64,000 bases of DNA from a virus, in UHGV virus genome UHGV-1366123. The stretch is one strand, 5' to 3'. Each line of letters begins with the position of its first letter. The stretch's first letter is position 1. Below are positions 4,337-25,927 of the stretch, piece by piece. The notes under the pieces are model-generated. The model had not been told where the DNA came from. It ran no database searches and saw nothing but the letters and a program-made list of their open reading frames with translations. The translations under genes and the position numbers were made by a program.

Positions 4337-6292
4337 ATGAGTAACAATAAAAATGTTGTAATCTTTGAGAACCATAGCGTTCCAATGAATCGTGTAAATG
4401 AATCGTTGGAAACCGCAAATGGGGTCAAAGATTACGTCTTTGAGGGTGTCTGTGCTACCTTTAATGGGAAAAACGAAAACGCAAGATTCTACGATAGAGA
4501 CGAGTATCTTCGTCATGTTGAATACCTTCAGAAGGAAATAGAACAGAACTCTCTGGCAGGATCTCTTGATCACCCAGATGGTGATGAAGAGGACGAAACG
4601 AAGGACATCTTCACCCCTAAAATGAAGGATCTGTCCCACCTCATCACAAAGCTTTGGTACAAGCCAGAGACTGATGAAGTCTGGATCAGAATCAAGCTTC
4701 TTGATACTGAATGGGGTAAGGATGCTAAGGCTTGTGTTGATGCTGGTATGCCACTGTTCATTAGCTCAAGATCATCTGGTTTCATTGACAAAGATGGGCG
4801 AGTATGGCTTGCACAAATTCACACATACGATATCGTCTACAGACCTGGGTTTGGTAACGCTAAACTTTCTCCAGTCCTCGAATCATTCGATGGAAAGAGC
4901 ACATATCTCAGCGTCTACTCACGCCAGAAGGAAGTAGACAGCACTGAATCTGAAAATACTAATATGGAAAAAAAGACTTATAAACTAAGCGAACTCACAA
5001 AGGAAGATGTTCTCTCGCTTCTGTTCAATCCTTCGGTGAAGGGAGCTTATGATTTCACGAGTGATGTGATCGAAAAACTCGACGAATTCTTCGATTATCC
5101 AAAGTTTATCGATTACTTCAATGAAAACGATCCAATGCTTTCTGACGCAATCGTGAACTACTTCATGGATTGTGGAAGATACGTTTATGATGATGGTACT
5201 TCTTGTGAAAATATCGCCGACTTCATAAAGATCGAAGTTGGTCGTGCATGTGACGACTATTTCGCAGAAATCAAGCAGACGTTCAAGGACAACTTCGGGG
5301 ATTTTGTTGAAGAAGGTGATGGAAAGGTAGACATCGATCGTTATGCTCGCATCATCGAAGAAAGCAAGAAATCAAAGAGAAATGTTCTGCGCAAGATCCA
5401 GTCGGTGAACGAATGCGAATCTGTGAAGTTGGTAGTTTCTGATTTCTGCAATGATCCTTCTTACGGATATGAAGATAAGTTCGAAGTCGCCAGAGAGTTC
5501 TTCGTCAAGTATCCCGAATATGGCGTAGTTGTCGATGATTGTTCTATGGAAGATGTTGTTCTTATCGCTTGTGATATGAAGAACGACTGCATCTATGACG
5601 AGATCGAGAACTCTGAAGTCAGAACCAAGAACGAAATCGCAGATGTCAAGCGTATTGTCAACAAGCTTTATGCTCAGATCAACCAAGACAGAGCAGAATA
5701 TAAGCAGACGATAAACTCACTCGTTCGAAATGTAAACCAAGTCCTCGAAGAGTACAAGGCAGATATCGAAAGTGCATTCATCACGATTGATGAAATCCGT
5801 GACGATGTTTACAACATAATCTCATGGATCGAATCAAACAACAGTGCACTTGACAAGTCAGAGGAAGTTGCACAGATCTCCAAGAAGCTGGATGATGCTA
5901 CCCAGAGCTTTAGTCAGAAGATTGGTGAAATCGAAGCATCACAGGATGCGGTAATGTCTCACGTAGACAATATCGAAAGTGATGTTTCCCTTATTGCCGA
6001 ATCTGCAAACAGAACGAAGCAGATGGTGAAGGAATCTGCAACGGCACGAAAGATTGAAGATGCGACAAGCATTGGTTCAAGAATCAACAACGTCATCGAG
6101 ACGATCAAGGCACAAACACCCGCTTTCCGTGTGTTTGAATCTGACGGTTCTCTCTACGTTCCTAACAGATTTGCAAAGAGTTATAACTCGCTCGACGAAG
6201 ACCAGAAGACTTTCGTCAAGTCTGTTTTTGAAACAAAGAATCCGAGATCTAAATCGGAATTCTTCTCCATTTGGGATTCTCTCGGTCTTTAA
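4337..6292 (+). CDS. Prohead core protease (T4 gp21-like) fused to an acidic coiled-coil scaffold-like C-terminal region
   Basis: N-terminal region with LDHPDG resembling the gp21 GHADHP active-site histidine block; long acidic/coiled-coil C-terminus; immediately upstream of the major capsid gene. Confidence 0.55.
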   Translation: MSNNKNVVIFENHSVPMNRVNESLETANGVKDYVFEGVCATFNGKNENARFYDRDEYLRHVEYLQKEIEQNSLAGSLDHPDGDEEDETKDIFTPKMKDLSHLITKLWYKPETDEVWIRIKLLDTEWGKDAKACVDAGMPLFISSRSSGFIDKDGRVWLAQIHTYDIVYRPGFGNAKLSPVLESFDGKSTYLSVYSRQKEVDSTESENTNMEKKTYKLSELTKEDVLSLLFNPSVKGAYDFTSDVIEKLDEFFDYPKFIDYFNENDPMLSDAIVNYFMDCGRYVYDDGTSCENIADFIKIEVGRACDDYFAEIKQTFKDNFGDFVEEGDGKVDIDRYARIIEESKKSKRNVLRKIQSVNECESVKLVVSDFCNDPSYGYEDKFEVAREFFVKYPEYGVVVDDCSMEDVVLIACDMKNDCIYDEIENSEVRTKNEIADVKRIVNKLYAQINQDRAEYKQTINSLVRNVNQVLEEYKADIESAFITIDEIRDDVYNIISWIESNNSALDKSEEVAQISKKLDDATQSFSQKIGEIEASQDAVMSHVDNIESDVSLIAESANRTKQMVKESATARKIEDATSIGSRINNVIETIKAQTPAFRVFESDGSLYVPNRFAKSYNSLDEDQKTFVKSVFETKNPRSKSEFFSIWDSLGL

Positions 6293-17563: not shown

Positions 17564-17708
17564 CAACAACAAAAAGTGGTATCACATACGATGTTGTCCC
17601 TCATTGATTCGAACAAAGACTAACAGAGCCAAGGTCTGTTGTGCTACCATTACACCAAAGGACAATTCGAATGTCCCTCCGCCGTCTACTACGTTCAAGG
17701 GACTGATG

Positions 17709-17783
17709 GGTGATGGATGGGACTTGAACCCACAACCAATAGAACCACAACCTATTGCTCTAACCAATTTGAGCTACCATCAC
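17709..17783 (-). tRNA. tRNA-His (anticodon GTG)
   Basis: Hand fold: acceptor GTGATGG/CCATCAC, D stem GCTC/GAGC, anticodon stem ATAGG/TCTAT, loop TTGTGGT, T arm GTGGG-TTCAAGT-CCCAT. Confidence 0.7.
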
Positions 17784-17871: not shown

Positions 17872-17944
17872 TCAGTCTGGTAGGATTCGAACCTACATCA
17901 TCTAAGAACCACCTTATAGGAATTTCCGATTATTCTACAGACTG
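17872..17944 (-). tRNA. tRNA-like sequence with canonical acceptor, D and T arms but a non-canonical anticodon arm (probable pseudo-tRNA)
   Basis: T arm GTAGG-TTCGAAT-CCTAC, acceptor CAGTCTG/CAGACTG, D stem GAAT/ATTC; no 5-bp stem with 7-nt loop can be drawn in the anticodon region. Confidence 0.4.
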
Positions 17945-18310
17945 AACAACAAACGATAATGAAGATTCAAAATGCTGAATATCTGCAAATCGGAAACTAT
18001 GATTGATTCATCTTTTAGACAGCTATGGACAATACCGAATGGGGTATCAAACCAGTAACTTGAAGATTTTTATAGATTGCTGTAAGTCCATAATCTAAAA
18101 GACGTTTTTTCTATCTTTTTCGTCGAAATCTTTACTGCAGACGTTATCTATGAGCCAATTATGAAGATTCTGTTTGCTGTGTGTCTACAGATCCCGACAT
18201 TAAGAATTCTTTAAAAGAACGCTTTGTGAATGATGACTTCCCAGTGGACTACGTAGTTTTAGGAGCAATTGCATAGTAATTTGCTGTGAATCCAATAGAT
18301 CATCATTTTG

Positions 18311-18395
18311 AGGAAGAACAGGGATTCGAACCCTGGGAACCTTGCAGTTCAACGGTTTTCAAGACCGTCGCAATCGACCACTCTGCCACTCTTCC
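18311..18395 (-). tRNA. tRNA-Ser (anticodon TGA), class II with long variable arm
   Basis: Hand fold: acceptor GGAAGAG/TTCTTCC, anticodon stem ACGGT/ACCGT, loop CTTGAAA, long variable arm, T arm AGGG-TTCGAAT-CCCT. Confidence 0.7.
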
Positions 18396-18740
18396 AATAT
18401 TGAGAAAACGATGGAAATCAGACTTACACTATAATCCCGAAACGTCACGATCTCGATCATCCAACCCCGTGGAAATCAGTACCACTTAGAGATTTAGCTT
18501 TAGAAAGTTGGACGACTTTCATCGATTTTCTCAAGCACCTTTTTTGTTGACAACCAGCAACTTAGGAGATAACACCCATTAGAGCAATGACCTTCCCATA
18601 TTCATAGGTCTTCTCTGGATAGAGTTGATGTTCAATATTGCGATGCCTTCTCAAAATCCCAACCCTATGAAAGACTTCTCAAAGACAACCGTTGTATATC
18701 GTTTCAAACGGTACTAAGTCGCTTTTTCTTTTTATTTTTG

Positions 18741-18810
18741 CGAAGAGAAGAGGGATCGAACCTCTCTGATCTTTATGGCTAGATCATCAGACCTTTTTCT
18801 GAATCTCTTC
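18741..18810 (-). tRNA. Atypical tRNA-like: canonical acceptor, D and T arms but an 8-nt anticodon loop AGCCATAA (contains CAU) on a 6-bp stem and a 1-nt variable region
   Basis: Acceptor GAAGAGA/TCTCTTC, T arm AGAGG-TTCGATC-CCTCT; anticodon arm TGATCT-AGCCATAA-AGATCA. Confidence 0.4.
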
Positions 18811-19321: not shown

Positions 19322-19340
19322 TGATCTCTGTTTGATCAGT

Positions 19341-20294
19341 TCATTTAGTCGTAGTTTGTTTCTTCTTGATGATCATTCTAAAATAAGTCTGCTCGCCATT
19401 CACAGACAAATATTTCCCGTCGTTTCCCCTTCTGGATGTCACAATCTCAAATTGTTGAGGATTGAATTTATACAAGAATGTTATCGGAACCCCCATGCAA
19501 CCATTGTAATCTCGTGGTATATCCTTGACCCTATCGACATTTATACCATCATAATTGTCGTATTTGGGATATTCATGTTCGTGTCCATAGTAGTTTTTTG
19601 TAAGCGGAATATCTTCATGTCGCATAGAGTGGTTCAAATTCGTAAACCACAGACAATTATTGGTGGGCGTGATCATATTACCAGATTCGTCCATCCATGT
19701 TTTTTTCATGTAGGGTTCATAATGGGCTGGTATGATAAACCCAGAAAATTCGTTCCCACGATTTACACCAAGCCATGCCTTACCATCTTGAACGGATTTG
19801 AAGATTTCTTTGTTGGTGATAGAATTGATATTCCCAATAATGAGAAAGAGCTTATCGTATCTGATCAGTTGTGTCATATATTCACGGAACAACGAAAATG
19901 GTGGATTTGTAACAACTATGTCAGATTGTTCCAGCAAATCGATACTTTCTTGACTACGAAAGTCGCCATCACCATTGAAGTAAACAACATCAGCTGTCTT
20001 TGGATCTGTATCGACGAGTTCTGTCCCTGTGTATTCAAAGAAAAAACCACGACTGTTTTCCTTATAACAAGATGCAATCACCTTCCGAAGTCCCAATTCT
20101 TTGAAATTGGAAACGAAGTATTTGAAAAAGTTACTCGTCAGAGGATCATCACAATTGCAATACACAACTTTCCCTTTAAAATGGCTTTCATAATGTCGCA
20201 ATTCTCTTTCGATATCAATAAGTTGCGTATAGAACTCGTCGTTCTTTTGCTTTCTAGCATTACGAAGTAACTTGCTGGTTGTTGCCCTTGCCAT
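19341..20294 (-). CDS. N6-adenine DNA methyltransferase, EcoRI-methylase family (orphan)
   Basis: N-terminus MARATTSKLL..KNDEFYTQ..VVYCNCDDP..SNFFKYF..LGL.K.IASCY closely parallels M.EcoRI; motif IV IVVTNPPF present; no restriction enzyme gene adjacent. Confidence 0.8.
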   Translation of the reverse strand: MARATTSKLLRNARKQKNDEFYTQLIDIERELRHYESHFKGKVVYCNCDDPLTSNFFKYFVSNFKELGLRKVIASCYKENSRGFFFEYTGTELVDTDPKTADVVYFNGDGDFRSQESIDLLEQSDIVVTNPPFSLFREYMTQLIRYDKLFLIIGNINSITNKEIFKSVQDGKAWLGVNRGNEFSGFIIPAHYEPYMKKTWMDESGNMITPTNNCLWFTNLNHSMRHEDIPLTKNYYGHEHEYPKYDNYDGINVDRVKDIPRDYNGCMGVPITFLYKFNPQQFEIVTSRRGNDGKYLSVNGEQTYFRMIIKKKQTTTK

Positions 20295-20419: not shown

Positions 20420-20595
20420 GTAGAAGCCTTATCGTATGTGAAAAATCTGCGTTTTATCCAGTTCTCACTTCTTGTTTCAACCTGCCATTACTTTTTAGGA
20501 ACACGAGGTTCGGTCATCCATAAGAGGGCAGTCCGCAAGCGTAAATTCGGTGCTACGAACACCTACTCGATTTTTTATATGTTAGACAGTTTGAA
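20420..20595 (-). ncRNA. Putative TnpB omega-RNA (reRNA) scaffold region at and beyond the 3' end of tnpB
   Basis: Inferred from IS200/IS605 biology; locally GC-rich, structured segment (GGAACACGAGGTTCGGTCATCC...GGTGCTACGAACACC) immediately 3' of the tnpB stop. Confidence 0.35.
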
Positions 20596-21724
20596 GTTTT
20601 CTTTGTCCTTCAATGAGAATGTTCTTCGAAGCGTTTATATCTCTGTCGTGATATTCACCACATTCGGGACAAGTCCAAAACCTATCACCGAGTTTCAAGT
20701 CTTTCTTCTTGTAACCACAACATAAACAAGTCTTTGAACTTGGATAGAACCTATTGATAAGAACAACTCGCTTATCATTCATAAGAGCCTTATATTGCAA
20801 TATCGACTTGAACCGATAAAATCCAGACTCTTGGATAGCATTCGCAAGATAACGATTTCCAAGCATCCCTTTAATATTCAAGTCTTCCATGAACACCACG
20901 TCGTATGATTTGAGGATCTCGTTCACAACTGAGTGGATGTAGTTCTCTTTCTTGTTCGTTATATTCGCAATCACTTTTGCAAGTCTGATTCTCTGTTTGT
21001 TCCTATTGTTTGAACCTTTGACCTTTCTGGATAGTTGACGATGAAGTCTTGTGATCTTCTTTTCCTCCTTCTTGAAGAAGTGTTTGTTTTCAAACACAAA
21101 TCCATCAGAGGTTATGACGAAATCTTTCACACCAAGATCAATACCGACTTGCTTGTTGGTCTTTTCAAACTTTACAAATTCTGCTTCGGGAATGTCGATA
21201 AGGATTGATAAGAAGAAATTCCCACTCTTGGTTTTCGAGAGAGTTGCACTTCTTATGTTATCTTTGTACTTCTGTAAGCGTTTGTGATACAAGTCAGAAC
21301 AACGGAATCTGAGTTTTTGAAGAGAAGTGATTAGTGTTATATGTTTCGTTTCGAAAGTGTTCCTCTTTGAAATAGCATTACGAGGAAACAATGCTGATTG
21401 TTTGTCTTTCTTTGATTTAAACTTTGGAAAGCCTTTATGATGATTGAAGAAGTTTTGATAAGCACCGACCATCTGTTTGATTGCTTGGTTCATCACCTTT
21501 GTGTTCTGTTCTCTCAACCAAGCATATTGTTCATCTTTCAACAATGATCCGTGGAAATATTTCGATAGATCGCTTTCGCTTAGGTTTGTCTTGTCCGTTT
21601 CATAAGCCTTTTGTTTTCTATCGAGCATGTGATTATAGACAAAACGATAAGCACCAAGAACCTTGTTGAGTTCTTGTTCCTGCGCTTTGTTTGGATATAA
21701 CCTTATTTTAATCGCTCTAAACAT
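20582..21724 (-). mobile_element. tnpB: TnpB (IS200/IS605 OrfB-family RNA-guided nuclease), intact, no tnpA present
   Basis: N-terminal IRLYPNKAQ..YRFVYNH; RuvC-I GIDLGVKD, RuvC-II FMEDLNIKGM, zinc finger CLCCG...CPECG, RuvC-III DRDINASKNIL; all catalytic residues present. Confidence 0.8.
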
Positions 21725-22212: not shown

Positions 22213-22279
22213 TGCTTCGTGAAGGATTCGAACCTTCATCAATTCCGTCGAATCGCTCTGGCCATTGAGCTAACGAAGC
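22213..22279 (-). tRNA. Short (67-nt) tRNA-like element: perfect acceptor, D and T arms, anticodon arm collapsed (pseudo-tRNA)
   Basis: Acceptor GCTTCGT/ACGAAGC, D arm GCTC-AATGGCCA-GAGC, T arm GAAGG-TTCGAAT-CCTTC; only 17 nt between D and T arms. Confidence 0.35.
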
Positions 22280-22481
22280 CCTCATAGATTCCCAGTTTTA
22301 ACGGAAACTGTGGCGGACTATGAACCCCTGCGTGAAACCGCACTTGAACTTCAACCAAGATCTGTACGTACTTTAACCCAAGTGATAGGTTTTGAACCCT
22401 AATTGAAGCAGAACTATTCCCATTCTGAGAGGGGACGTTATCAACTTAAAAATTGGTGAAACGTCCTAAAGTCAACATCGG

Positions 22482-22554
22482 TACGCCATGAAGGATTTGA
22501 ACCTTCGACCGCCAAGGTATAAGCTTGGAACTCTAACCACTGAGTTAATGGCGC
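22482..22554 (-). tRNA. tRNA-Ile (anticodon TAT, decodes AUA)
   Basis: Acceptor GCGCCAT/ATGGCGT, D arm ACTC-AGTGGTT-AGAGT, anticodon stem CCAAG/CTTGG, loop CTTATAC, T arm GAAGG-TTCAAAT-CCTTC. Confidence 0.65.
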
Positions 22555-23135: not shown

Positions 23136-23157
23136 CGTGTCTCTTGTTCTTTTTTTG

Positions 23158-23230
23158 TGATTCCAGTGGGGCTTGAACCCACAACCCCTGCATTAAAAGT
23201 GCAGTGCTCTACCTGTTGAGCTATGAAATC
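23158..23230 (-). tRNA. tRNA-Lys (anticodon TTT)
   Basis: Acceptor GATTTCA/TGGAATC, D arm GCTC-AACAGGTA-GAGC, anticodon stem CTGCA/TGCAG, loop CTTTTAA, T arm GTGGG-TTCAAGC-CCCAC. Confidence 0.7.
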
Positions 23231-23370
23231 TAAACCATTGTTCTAAGCGAATCTCTTCAAGTGAATGATTAATCGCTTCGGTATTCTTATTGTGAATGTC
23301 AAGATATTAGTTTCAATGATAGTTACCAACAGCTATTGGAGATTATCAACAAATATTAGCAGTTCCCATG

Positions 23371-23446
23371 CCAAGAAGACCCCCCCCCGATGAATTGATT
23401 CTTTTTTATCAAAAAGAATCAATTCATCGGGGGGGGGTCTTCTTGG
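23371..23446. repeat. 76-bp perfect palindrome: 36-bp stem (CCAAGAAGA-C9-GATGAATTGATTCTTTTT) around a TATC loop, with C9/G9 homopolymer tracts
   Basis: seen in sequence; every position pairs. Confidence 0.9.
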
Positions 23447-23464
23447 AGATTATCGTTTATGGGT

Positions 23465-23520
23465 GAAGATTGAAGATTGAAGATTGAAGATTGAAGATTG
23501 AAGATTGAAGATTGGCTTCC
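23465..23520. repeat. Microsatellite (GAAGATT)x8
   Basis: seen in sequence. Confidence 0.95.
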
Positions 23521-23573
23521 GCATATTGAAGAAATGTGTTAAAGTGTATTATCAACTGATACGCTTTAAAGGA

Positions 23574-23657
23574 AGGTATTTTCCTTGCGCTCTGAGAGGT
23601 TCAAGAATATGAAAATAGCGGAGAATAGATCAGAGCGCAAGGAAAGTACCAAGGAAA
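23574..23657. repeat. MITE-like hairpin element copy (TIRs GGAAGGTATTTTCCTTGCGCTCTGA / TCAGAGCGCAAGGAAAGTACC; loop carries GAAAATAGCGGAG core)
   Basis: seen in sequence. Confidence 0.7.
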
Positions 23658-24060
23658 GCCAAGGAGACATATCCTTTGGAATGATGGGTTTCTGTCGGGA
23701 GACAATGACTATTTCCAAGGATTATGAGAAGACTATGACAATAATGGAGGACAATGGAAGATTATCAATGACTTGAAAGACAATGGTTGGAAAATGACTG
23801 ATTTTTAGAGGATTATCAGAGGACTATCTTTTGGAAAATGGTTGGTGATTATCGAATTAAAGGAAGGTACTTTCCTTGTCCTCGAAGCTATTCGAGAATA
23901 TGAAAATAGCGGAGACCATACTCGAGTTCAAGGAAAGTACCAAGGAAATCCAAGGAGACATATTTTCGAGGATTATGGTCTCTGTGGCTAATGGGAGGAA
24001 TATCTTGGAAAGAGAATATCAGTTTAAAGGTGTTAAAAGGTGTTAATCTGTTCGGGGATT
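23640..24060. repeat. Left iteron array: GACAATG / TGACAAT / GACTATGACAAT repeats (reverse complement of the right arrays)
   Basis: seen in sequence. Confidence 0.7.
23867..23941. repeat. MITE-like hairpin element copy
   Basis: TTAAAGGAAGGTACTTTCCTTG ... CAAGGAAAGTACC; loop GAGAATATGAAAATAGCGGAGACCATACTCGAG. Confidence 0.7.
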
Positions 24061-24070
24061 TAGTGAAGGT

Positions 24071-24170
24071 CTTTTTTAAAGTTTTACGCATGCGTTTTTT
24101 AAAGTTTTACGTGCGTGCGCTTTTTTTTGGAGTTTCACGCATGCGTTTTTTAAAGTTTCGCAACACGCAC
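24071..24170. repeat. Four tandem ~25-bp repeats TTTTTTAAAGTTTTACGCATGCG (each with a GCATGC or GCGTGC palindromic core); a fifth variant lies at 24376-24405
   Basis: seen in sequence. Confidence 0.85.
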
Positions 24171-24236
24171 CTGGTACTTTTGGTTTAAACTGGAGATTTA
24201 AAAACATGCGCACGACATGTTTCTGCGCTCAATGTA

Positions 24237-24289
24237 TGGTTTGGGGCAGCCTGGCTTGGCACTATCGTGCCAAGGCTGACCCCAAACCA
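24237..24289. repeat. Imperfect 26-bp palindrome TGGTTTGGGGCAGCCTGGCTTGGCAC-TATC-GTGCCAAGGCTGACCCCAAACCA, same TATC centre as the 36-bp palindrome
   Basis: seen in sequence. Confidence 0.8.
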
Positions 24290-24420
24290 GTTGTAAATAC
24301 TTTGTATTTACGATAAAACTGGAAAAAAATAACGCATGCGTATACGGGTATACACGGGAATTCGCGCGTTTTTTCAAAGTTTCGTGTATACGCACGGTTT
24401 GTCGGCAAATTCCGAGATTA

Positions 24421-24720
24421 GTCTGATTATCTTTCAATTTCAGTCTTTCAATTTTCAACTTTCCATTCAAAATCAGTTAACAATTCTTAACAATTCTCTG
24501 TTCTTGGAATGATTATCTTTCAATTTCAATCTTTCAATCTCTCTTTGAATAATCATCCATTGTCTTTCCAAGAATCATAGTCTTTCCAAGAATCATAAAT
24601 ATCTCGGGAATCATCAATGGTCTCTTTCAATTGTTCTGGTCTGTTCTGGGATTAAAAAGACTAATTTTGATTTTCAACTTTCCCTTTCCACAATAAAACC
24701 ATTTAGTGATTGTCTTTTGT
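24421..24720. repeat. AT-rich block of short direct repeats (TCTTTCAAT, TTCAATTTCA, TCTTTCCAAGAATCATA x2)
   Basis: seen in sequence. Confidence 0.7.
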
Positions 24721-24839
24721 CTTCAAAACGATTATCATTAAAGGGGCGGAAATCTATGATTCAGACAAAAGTCATCTTCTATTAACAAATCTTTAGAGAA
24801 TTCTTTCAATCTTTAGAGAAATTTTTCAAAGAGACTATG

Positions 24840-25017
24840 ACTTTTTCTATTGTCTTTGATAATCTTTTCACGATCCTCTATTGTCTTGGTGATTCTTTGA
24901 TGATCAGTCATTGTCTTTGATTATGGTTGATTGTCTTCCATAGTCTTCTGATAATCACTGACAATAGTCATTGTCTTCCGACAATCATACCACCATTCAA
25001 CAGAATACCTCTTCTGA
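24840..25017. repeat. Right iteron array 1: (A/C)(G)TCATTGTCTT(T/C) and GATTGTCTT repeats
   Basis: seen in sequence; three segmental copies follow. Confidence 0.75.
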
Positions 25018-25112
25018 TTACAGGAAGGTACTTTCCTTGCGCTCTGATCCATTTTCCGCTATTTCTATCCCACCGAATGTCTTCGAGGACAAGGAAAGTA
25101 CCTTCCTTTAAT
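25018..25112. repeat. MITE-like hairpin element copy with its loop inverted relative to the 23574 and 23867 copies
   Basis: TTACAGGAAGGTACTTTCCTTGCGCTCTGA ... TTCCGCTATTTC ... CAAGGAAAGTACCTTCCTTTAA. Confidence 0.7.
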
Positions 25113-25159
25113 TCAACCATTCTCAACCATTTTCTGGTAGATCATCTTCATAATCATTC

Positions 25160-25356
25160 AAAGAACCAGTTGTGAAGACGGTCATCATTGTCTTTCCATA
25201 ATCCTTTGATGGTCAGTCATTGTCTTTGATTGTTTTCCATAGTCAGTCATTGTCTTTGATTATGGTCGATTGTCTTTCCATAGTCTTCTCATAATCCTTC
25301 GAAATAGTCATTGTCTCCCGACAGAAACCCATAATCCTCGAGAATATGTCTCCTGA
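25160..25356. repeat. Right iteron array 2 (GTCATTGTCTTTGAT / GATTGTCTTTCCATAGTC units)
   Basis: seen in sequence. Confidence 0.75.
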
Positions 25357-25450
25357 TTACAGGAAGGTACTTTCCTTGAACTCGAGTATGGTCTCCGCTA
25401 TTTTCATATTCTTGAATATCTCAGAGCGCAAGGAAAGTACCTCGTCTTAA
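25357..25450. repeat. MITE-like hairpin element copy; loop is the inverted form of the 23867 copy
   Basis: loop AACTCGAGTATGGTCTCCGCTATTTTCATATTCT is the reverse complement of the 23867-copy loop. Confidence 0.7.
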
Positions 25451-25454
25451 TTAA

Positions 25455-25695
25455 TGAATCAGAACTATTGTCTCTTCATAGTCTTCTGATAATACTTCAA
25501 TAATCGTCCATTGTCTTTCAATAATCAGCCATTGTCTTCCGATTATGGTCGATTGTCTTTGATGATTGTTGATTGTCTTTGATGATTGTTGATTGTCTTC
25601 CATAATCAGTCATTATCTTGGATAGTCTTCCATAATCCTTCGAAATGGTCTATTGTCTTCGGATGATGACCCATAGTCCCCGAGAATACCTCTCC
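25455..25695. repeat. Right iteron array 3, including GATGATTGTTGATTGTCTTT x2
   Basis: seen in sequence. Confidence 0.75.
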
Positions 25696-25699
25696 TTGG

Positions 25700-25792
25700 C
25701 TCTCCTTGGTACTTTCCTTGCATTCTGATACACTTTCCGCTATTTTCATATTCTCGGGCTATTTCGAGGACAAGGAAAGTACCTCTCTTTAA
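25700..25792. repeat. MITE-like hairpin element copy
   Basis: CCTTGGTACTTTCCTTGCATTCTGA ... CAAGGAAAGTACCTCTCTTTAA. Confidence 0.65.
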
Positions 25793-25927
25793 TTCACAAC
25801 TCTGTGACCATTTCTCCAGCCAATTTTCTGATTATTGCTGGAAGGTCAATGTTTGGATACAGATGTGGGGAGAAGAAATCAAACTTCTCCCCACATTCTT
25901 CTTTTTGATTTGTAGGTTTCTTTTCTT

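Follow-up and report, generated by a model that had tools for sequence, protein, structure and literature searches.

Three tRNA-like genes that lack a normal anticodon arm, lying among the canonical tRNA genes of a phage, raise the question of whether such genes still take part in decoding, are tRNA genes in decay or are kept for another purpose. The three elements, here termed A (18741–18810), B (17872–17944) and C (22213–22279), are all on the minus strand of the 64-kb stretch of DNA that was analysed (the window), which is part of a ~150-kb T4-like phage (GC ~40%) with homologues of a Gp23-type capsid protein, RecA/UvsX and DnaB upstream of the tRNA region. Between 17.6 and 23.3 kb all features are on the minus strand, and A, B and C share one common orientation with the flanking genes and tRNAs. 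ARAGORN and Rfam identified five canonical tRNAs in this interval, namely tRNA-Gln(UUG) (17593–17664), tRNA-His(GUG) (17708–17783), tRNA-Ser(UGA) (18310–18395), tRNA-Ile(UAU) (22480–22554) and tRNA-Lys(UUU) (23157–23230); the earlier note on this DNA had counted four, having overlooked tRNA-Gln(UUG). The accessory genes between the tRNAs comprise an EcoRI-type adenine methylase, an IS605-type TnpB, a NADAR-domain protein and several small ORFs; ORF70, ORF74 and ORF155 gave no Pfam or PHROGs annotation. A search for a 7/7 acceptor stem combined with a 5/5 T stem and a TTCRANN loop returned seven sites in the 64-kb window, every one of them on the minus strand and within 17.7–23.2 kb, corresponding to A, B, C and four canonical tRNAs (tRNA-Gln, with a 4/5 T stem, being left out), and none in shuffled sequence, so that A, B and C exceed chance. 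The ARAGORN tmRNA search and the Rfam tmRNA families revealed no tmRNA within the window, and sigma-70 promoters and terminators predicted between 17.3 and 23.6 kb were as numerous as in shuffled sequence.

The reverse complement of A reads, as DNA, GAAGAGA TT CAGA AAAAGG TCTG A TGATCT AGCCATAA AGATCA G AGAGG TTCGATC CCTCT TCTCTTC G. The acceptor stem has 7 bp and the D stem 4 bp with a loop of 6 nt, a further stem of 6 bp closes an 8-nt loop (AGCCAUAA), and a single nucleotide forms the variable region before a canonical T arm. This fold, proposed by hand in the earlier note with textbook acceptor and T arms, is exactly the RNAfold centroid, and the 8-nt loop is present in the minimum free energy structure as well (−23.2 kcal/mol, z = −2.2). 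A departs from a canonical tRNA in its variable region (the norm being at least 4 nt), in its D loop (at least 7 nt being the norm for an L-shaped fold) and in its anticodon arm, where the 6-bp stem and 8-nt loop come without U33. Default ARAGORN made no call for A, and there was no Rfam tRNA match even at E ≤ 10; the sole Rfam match in a search with 151 nt was to tRNA-Sec (21.7 bits against a gathering score of 47), and ARAGORN relaxed to 80% reported a “tRNA-???” with a 2-nt anticodon.

B has perfect acceptor, D and T stems, and its anticodon region folds as a 6-nt loop (GUGGUU) on an imperfect stem; it scored 42.3 bits with the Rfam tRNA family (RF00005, gathering threshold 29 bits) and was called by ARAGORN as “tRNA-??? 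(gg)”, with a 2-nt anticodon in the 6-nt loop. C, as defined from Rfam, RNAfold and six variants, is a 67-nt tRNA body without an anticodon arm and reads GCUUCGU UA GCUC AAUGGCCA GAGC (G)AUUC-GACG-GAAU(U) GAU GAAGG UUCGAAU CCUUC ACGAAGC A, the arm being reduced to a 4–5-bp mini-stem with a GACG tetraloop, (G)ATTC-GACG-GAAT(T) in DNA letters. Its Rfam tRNA score was 56.3 bits against the same threshold of 29. Both B and C have normal D loops and variable regions of 3–4 nt. The description of these two elements as keeping perfect acceptor and T arms without a normal anticodon arm was therefore correct, and it holds for the D arms as well. No 7-nt loop was obtained for A, B or C with Rfam at gathering or permissive settings or with ARAGORN at 100, 90, 80 or 70% with introns allowed, in agreement with the hand folds. 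On these folds none of the three has a usable anticodon loop, and none is predicted to read a codon.

No close relative of the region was found among deposited phages. Using the neighbouring 472-aa protein and DNA patterns, 16 distinct related loci were recovered from IMG/VR, ENA, Logan and JGI, with marker protein identities of 76–98%, and the tRNA island proved strongly mosaic among them. For example, tRNA-Gln and tRNA-His are present only in some related genomes, and a tRNA-Tyr(GUA) located 4–8 nt 3′ of A in 11 loci is deleted in the window (18722–18740, compared with 5180–5264 of locus L001). The same tRNA is also deleted in L005, L037, L039 and L150, apparently between repeated CAAAAAUAAAAAG trailers. 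The slot occupied in the window by tRNA-Ile(UAU), a rare isoacceptor in bacteria, contains in most relatives an unrelated CAU tRNA called as Met and possibly Ile2; since the two share at most 73% identity or none detectable, the tRNA-Ile(UAU) reflects gene replacement and not point mutation. Locus L041 likewise carries a UAU tRNA.

The accessory genes show further rearrangement. The TnpB gene (20582–21724, minus strand), inserted in the tRNA island, belongs to the IS605 family and encodes HTH_OrfB, OrfB_IS605 and Cas12f1-like TNB domains; it is found at other positions in L040, L041 and L048 or is missing in relatives, and is thus apparently mobile. The ~290 nt of non-coding sequence 3′ of TnpB, extending to 20295, could hold a guide (omega) RNA. 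The order of the methylase gene (19341–20294, minus strand) and the adjacent 155-aa ORF is swapped in L001, and a 312-codon open frame on the plus strand (19332–20270) runs antisense to nearly all of the methylase gene. Beyond tRNA-Lys, an ORF-poor 2.7-kb stretch (23231–25927) is dense in repeats, with three ~340-nt tandem units, inverted copies at 23566–23978, 10-nt periodic UGAUUGUCUU-like iterons, a (TGAAGAT)n run at 23450–23525 and a perfect 36-nt inverted repeat with G9/C9 at 23371–23446; it looks like an origin or regulatory region.

Orthologues of A were present at 16 related loci, 11 of them full-length and five retaining only the 5′ half as a result of two independent 3′ deletions (one in L003, L159 and L040, the other in L008 and L048). 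Four of the 11 full copies (L041, L045, L037 and L039) have mismatches in the acceptor, D or T stem, compared with 34 of 40 distinct genuine tRNA sequences from the related loci that are free of acceptor and T mismatches, and the anticodon stem is broken in L005 and L037. Three pairs show compensatory change, namely the fifth stem pair in L039 (C-G to U-A), the sixth in L150 (U-A to C-G) and one D-stem pair in L002. Overall 94.9% of cells were paired (11 unpaired), the covariation score of 0.081 was reached by 3 of 500 shuffles, and 8 of 500 shuffles matched the three pairs changed on both sides, a weak signal that, by the caveat attached to the tool, could arise on a tree without constraint. 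As judged by pairing, the compensatory changes point to partial maintenance of the fold with its 6-bp stem and 8-nt loop, yet the element is dispensable and eroding in many relatives.

The 8-nt loop had been taken in the earlier note as the signature of a +1 frameshift-suppressor tRNA. Apart from their 8-nt anticodon loops, suppressors of this kind (sufD, sufA6, sufB2) are tRNAs of canonical form that can be charged, with U33 retained and a purine on the 3′ side of the anticodon. A resembles them in carrying an 8-nt loop on a stable stem, now confirmed, and quadruplet decoding is further favoured by the two compensatory changes within the 6-bp stem and by the retention of NNCCAUAA in 9 of the 11 full-length copies, the first two loop bases being variable (AG, AA, GG, CG). 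However, suppressors keep U33 and a canonical body, and the equivalent of U33 before CAU is found in none of the A copies, which have a D loop of 6 nt and a variable region of 1–2 nt. The loop itself changes to CACCAAAA in L037 and to GAUCAUAA or GAUUAUAA in the L005/L008 lineage, so that the CAU triplet becomes CAA in L037 and UAU in L008 and L048. A is moreover rejected by tRNA models, is truncated or mismatched in the nine relatives described above, and the standard code reads the long ORFs of the window without interruption. A suppressor should be a canonical, chargeable tRNA with U33, and A is neither canonical nor equipped with U33, so the suppressor reading is unsupported and a functional quadruplet-decoding tRNA is highly improbable here. 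A is best described, from its predicted fold and its copies in relatives, as a non-decoding tRNA-like RNA.

The only intact copy of B is that of the window. Its orthologues in L150, L003/L159 and L006 have two to three acceptor mismatches together with broken D stems, and in L039 only the 5′ half is left. As a separate observation, the segment 17862–17910 (minus strand), covering the 3′ half of B and ~30 nt downstream, is nearly invariant in relatives, even though divergence and loss of pairing are seen in the 5′ half of B. The spacer between B and tRNA-His contains an 8-bp long-range stem (ACGUAGUG...CACUACGU) enclosing a hairpin, and a T-arm-like hairpin, GGACA-UUCGAAU-UGUCC, at approximately 17655–17671 (minus strand) overlaps the 5′ end of tRNA-Gln and is possibly a tRNA relic.

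C presents a different picture. Only six variants were available (the window, L003/L159, L150, L008, L040 and L037), and in all six the acceptor, D and T pairs were 100% paired, with no unpaired cell. Five pairs were compensated (acceptor pair 6:67, D pair 13:22 and three T-stem pairs), and the covariation score was reached in 0 of 500 shuffles. The mini-stem also covaries (AUUC/GAAU, AUCA/UGGU, AUCU/AGAU) with the GACG loop constant; the L037 variant has no hairpin, its D and T stems being only 12 nt apart. Gene conversion from neighbouring tRNAs was considered as a source of the perfect stems and excluded, since the stems of C are unlike those of all tRNAs of the same genomes. This pattern of pairing marks C as a selected RNA, a tRNA body that lacks the anticodon arm and is maintained by purifying selection, and hence not one in decay. 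C is nonetheless accessory despite selection: it is missing in about half of the relatives, where its slot is filled by a ~325-aa ORF with no Pfam or PHROGs annotation.

The 3′ end of C lies 25 nt before the ORF 22187–21975 (minus strand). This 70-aa ORF, directly 3′ of C, weakly resembles the ribosomal protein L7/L12 C-terminal domain at a level below threshold (E = 0.0016; score 19.2 bits, cut-off 25.9). On the other side, 13 nt upstream of C, a hairpin CAGUUU-CCGUUA-AAACUG (22293–22310, minus strand) is present in all C-bearing relatives and in L037 reads CAGUUC...GAACUG, which amounts to one compensated pair. In the spacer between tRNA-Ile and C (22377–22456, minus strand), a T-arm-like motif (UAGGGUUCAAAACCUA), for which ARAGORN called a “tRNA-Leu(cag)” only at 80%, is another possible tRNA relic.

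The architecture of C was then searched for in other phages with a filter that demanded a 7/7 acceptor stem, D and T stems of 4 and 5 bp separated by no more than 19 nt, and a T loop of the form UUCRANN. Applied to 1.7 Mb of loci, the filter gave two further independent cases (L096 and L077), both in tRNA arrays, and none in shuffled sequence. A scan of the viral collection for the commonest D arm followed by a T arm placed too close gave at least 21 distinct arm-less elements among the 120 matches listed. For a second D-arm type the listing was complete at 27 loci and contained at least 17 arm-less elements. Taken together, about 40 distinct arm-less elements of 58–69 nt were found, among the matches listed, in unrelated viral contigs (IMG/VR) and cultured phages, including one unannotated element in Lactococcus P335-group phages. 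In 185,579 genomes of bacteria and archaea, the first of these patterns gave 120 listed matches, all of them canonical tRNAs and none an arm-less element. Among the matches listed for this pattern, arm-less elements thus accounted for 0 of 120 in bacteria and about 30 of 120 loci in viruses, an indication only of virus enrichment since the figures come from listed matches and are not normalised per tRNA.

With Rfam the arm-less elements score as plain tRNA (44–60 bits), and annotation pipelines either miss them or label them as tRNA or “tRNA-OTHER”. Their acceptor stems are diverse and always perfect. All are located outside ORFs, most point in the same direction as the next gene, and for several the distance from their end to its start codon is 13–25 nt. 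No conserved partner protein was found beside them by all-against-all BLAST and Pfam. A protective upstream hairpin of the MALAT1 kind was rejected as a general feature, a minimum free energy of −10 or lower occurring in 30% vs 24% (Mann–Whitney p = 0.64). Four otherwise unrelated IMG/VR contigs (L216, L313, L245 and L308) have, 5–7 nt upstream of the element, a hairpin whose loop is always GAAAGA and whose stems covary (CCGG/CCGG, CCCG/CGGG, ACG/CGU, CUG/CAG), which suggests that some arm-less elements are part of a larger conserved RNA motif. A search of the literature returned no description of anticodon-arm-less tRNA-like genes in phages. We tentatively propose that C belongs to a widespread, virus-enriched and undescribed class of ~58–69-nt arm-less tRNA genes kept by selection for a non-decoding function of the tRNA top half. 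Such elements may hijack tRNA processing, CCA addition or EF-Tu binding, or may act as a decoy for host factors that recognise the acceptor end.

These results bear on the other explanations for such elements, one of which is that A, B and C are neutral, decaying tRNA pseudogenes without function, the debris of turnover in a recombination-prone island. The wide variation in tRNA content among relatives with 76–98% protein identity, the movement of TnpB, HNH and methylase cassettes within the region, the visible degradation of B and of many A copies and the possible extra relics at 22377–22456 and ~17655–17671 are all consistent with decay. Mobile-element integration is known to generate tRNA fragments and pseudogenes, which tools mislabel or report with an “undetermined isotype” (PMC9897764), and A, B and C resemble such fragments in being non-canonical tRNA-like sequences. 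Integration-derived fragments are, however, partial and typically 3′ portions, whereas in A, B and C the two acceptor strands, the D arm and the T arm are all kept and only a normal anticodon arm is missing. The complete pairing of C in six variants, with its five compensated pairs and covarying mini-stem, argues against neutrality, as do the three compensated pairs in A and the occurrence of analogous perfect-stem elements in many unrelated phages. The view that these are decaying CAU or pseudo-tRNAs, raised in the earlier note, is thus apt for B with its broken orthologues and in part for A, where truncations stand against compensated pairs, but not for C; as an account of all three elements, neutral decay is unlikely.

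A functional alternative is that the arm-less elements are stable decoys or sponges that mimic the acceptor end and elbow and titrate host factors such as 3′-end-modifying toxins or tRNA-binding enzymes. The apparent virus enrichment among the matches listed and the combination of diverse sequence with invariably perfect pairing in the acceptor stems are in line with this, as is the location of the elements in an accessory-gene island adjoining tRNA-Lys and, in relatives, tRNA-Tyr, types that two papers link to counter-defence (PMC11464382, PMC13096335). Against it, the all-against-all BLAST and Pfam comparisons gave no conserved partner gene, and an RNA that has no anticodon loop would not serve as a decoy for anticodon nucleases, which are the best known of the defences that target tRNAs; dedicated decoys therefore seem rather improbable, more so than decay. 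Least convincing, along with frameshift suppression, is the derivation of the elements from host tRNA genes as attP or recombination sites. It finds some footing in the Lactococcus P335-group phages, where the element lies between the lysin gene and the lysogeny module and the sequences of prophage TP712 and free phage D3906 diverge right after its 3′ end. This coincidence makes attP plausible in those phages and implies that some arm-less elements may double as attP. In the present case a tRNA-derived attachment site, as the earlier note had envisaged, is to be doubted, since the phage is T4-like, encodes homologues of Gp23, UvsX and DnaB, and showed no integrase among the proteins scanned around the tRNA region. 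Nor did integrases feature among the families that recur in the 90 ORFs neighbouring 38 arm-less elements, on which ground attP was rejected as a general explanation, and an attP needs only the 3′ part of a tRNA and not a paired 5′ acceptor strand and D arm. The probability that the elements are attachment sites is accordingly very low.

The explanation that we favour, to which we would give an even chance, is that A, B and C are non-decoding tRNA mimics that arose from tRNA genes, kept the top half and are excised by tRNA-processing enzymes. Under this explanation the elements would have lost the decoding part of the tRNA and kept the acceptor–T minihelix and the D/T elbow, which, from established enzymology, are the parts expected to be recognised by RNase P, by RNase Z or 3′ trimming, by the CCA-adding enzyme and by T-loop modification enzymes. 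Because the retained parts match those recognised in tRNA processing, the elements should be cut from the minus-strand polycistronic transcript as tRNAs are. Excision would make them processing punctuation that sets the ends of flanking mRNAs and tRNAs, for example at C, 25 nt before the next ORF, and the excised elements may persist as stable mimics of the tRNA top half. Punctuation is probably the most economical role by analogy with plant mitochondrial t-elements and mascRNA. The absence of C from about half of the relatives means that punctuation at this site is not essential. The proposal of the earlier note that the elements act as processing punctuation or regulatory tRNA-derived elements is thus partly supported, being the best available reading for C, which is under selection and not decaying.

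MALAT1 mascRNA is a non-decoding tRNA-like cleavage signal with a reduced anticodon arm at the end of a lncRNA. Plant mitochondrial t-elements are non-decoding tRNA-like signals for RNase P and RNase Z cleavage that form mRNA ends (PMC1920247). In all six variants C has the features shared by such elements, the acceptor–T minihelix and elbow being kept, the anticodon arm reduced or absent and decoding not predicted. T-elements and mascRNA are organellar or nuclear with cleavage proven experimentally, whereas the elements described here are phage-encoded, would act in a bacterial host and are expected to be processed on the grounds given above. Closer to the present phage, the T4 species 1 RNA (rnaC) is a small stable RNA inside the T4 tRNA cluster, co-oriented with the tRNAs and with no function annotated. 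Like C, it has a perfect T arm (CCGGG-UUCGAAU-CCCGG), an acceptor-like closing stem and no anticodon arm; unlike C, compact at 67 nt and matching the Rfam tRNA family at 56 bits, it is 139 nt long with large internal hairpins and gives no Rfam tRNA match; the likeness drawn here is one of architecture. A “tRNA-OTHER / Undet(NNN)” annotated in Polaribacter phage Danklef_1 (MT732458.1, 43546–43603) has the architecture of C in 58 nt, with a 7-bp acceptor stem, D and T arms and 8 nt (UUUAGGUC) replacing the anticodon arm and variable loop, and it ends 13 nt before the next gene. It differs from C in being unrelated in sequence, in having no mini-hairpin, in standing alone outside a tRNA cluster and in belonging to another phage family.

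For the annotation of phage genomes, the case of A calls for caution, as an 8-nt “anticodon” loop in a phage tRNA-like gene is no evidence of quadruplet decoding. A itself is of modest interest, and C with its counterparts in other phages is the part worth following. If the arm-less elements do form a functional class, they would represent a new kind of small phage RNA that exploits the tRNA-processing or tRNA-binding machinery of the host, and they might illuminate the long-unexplained stable RNAs of the T4 tRNA cluster.
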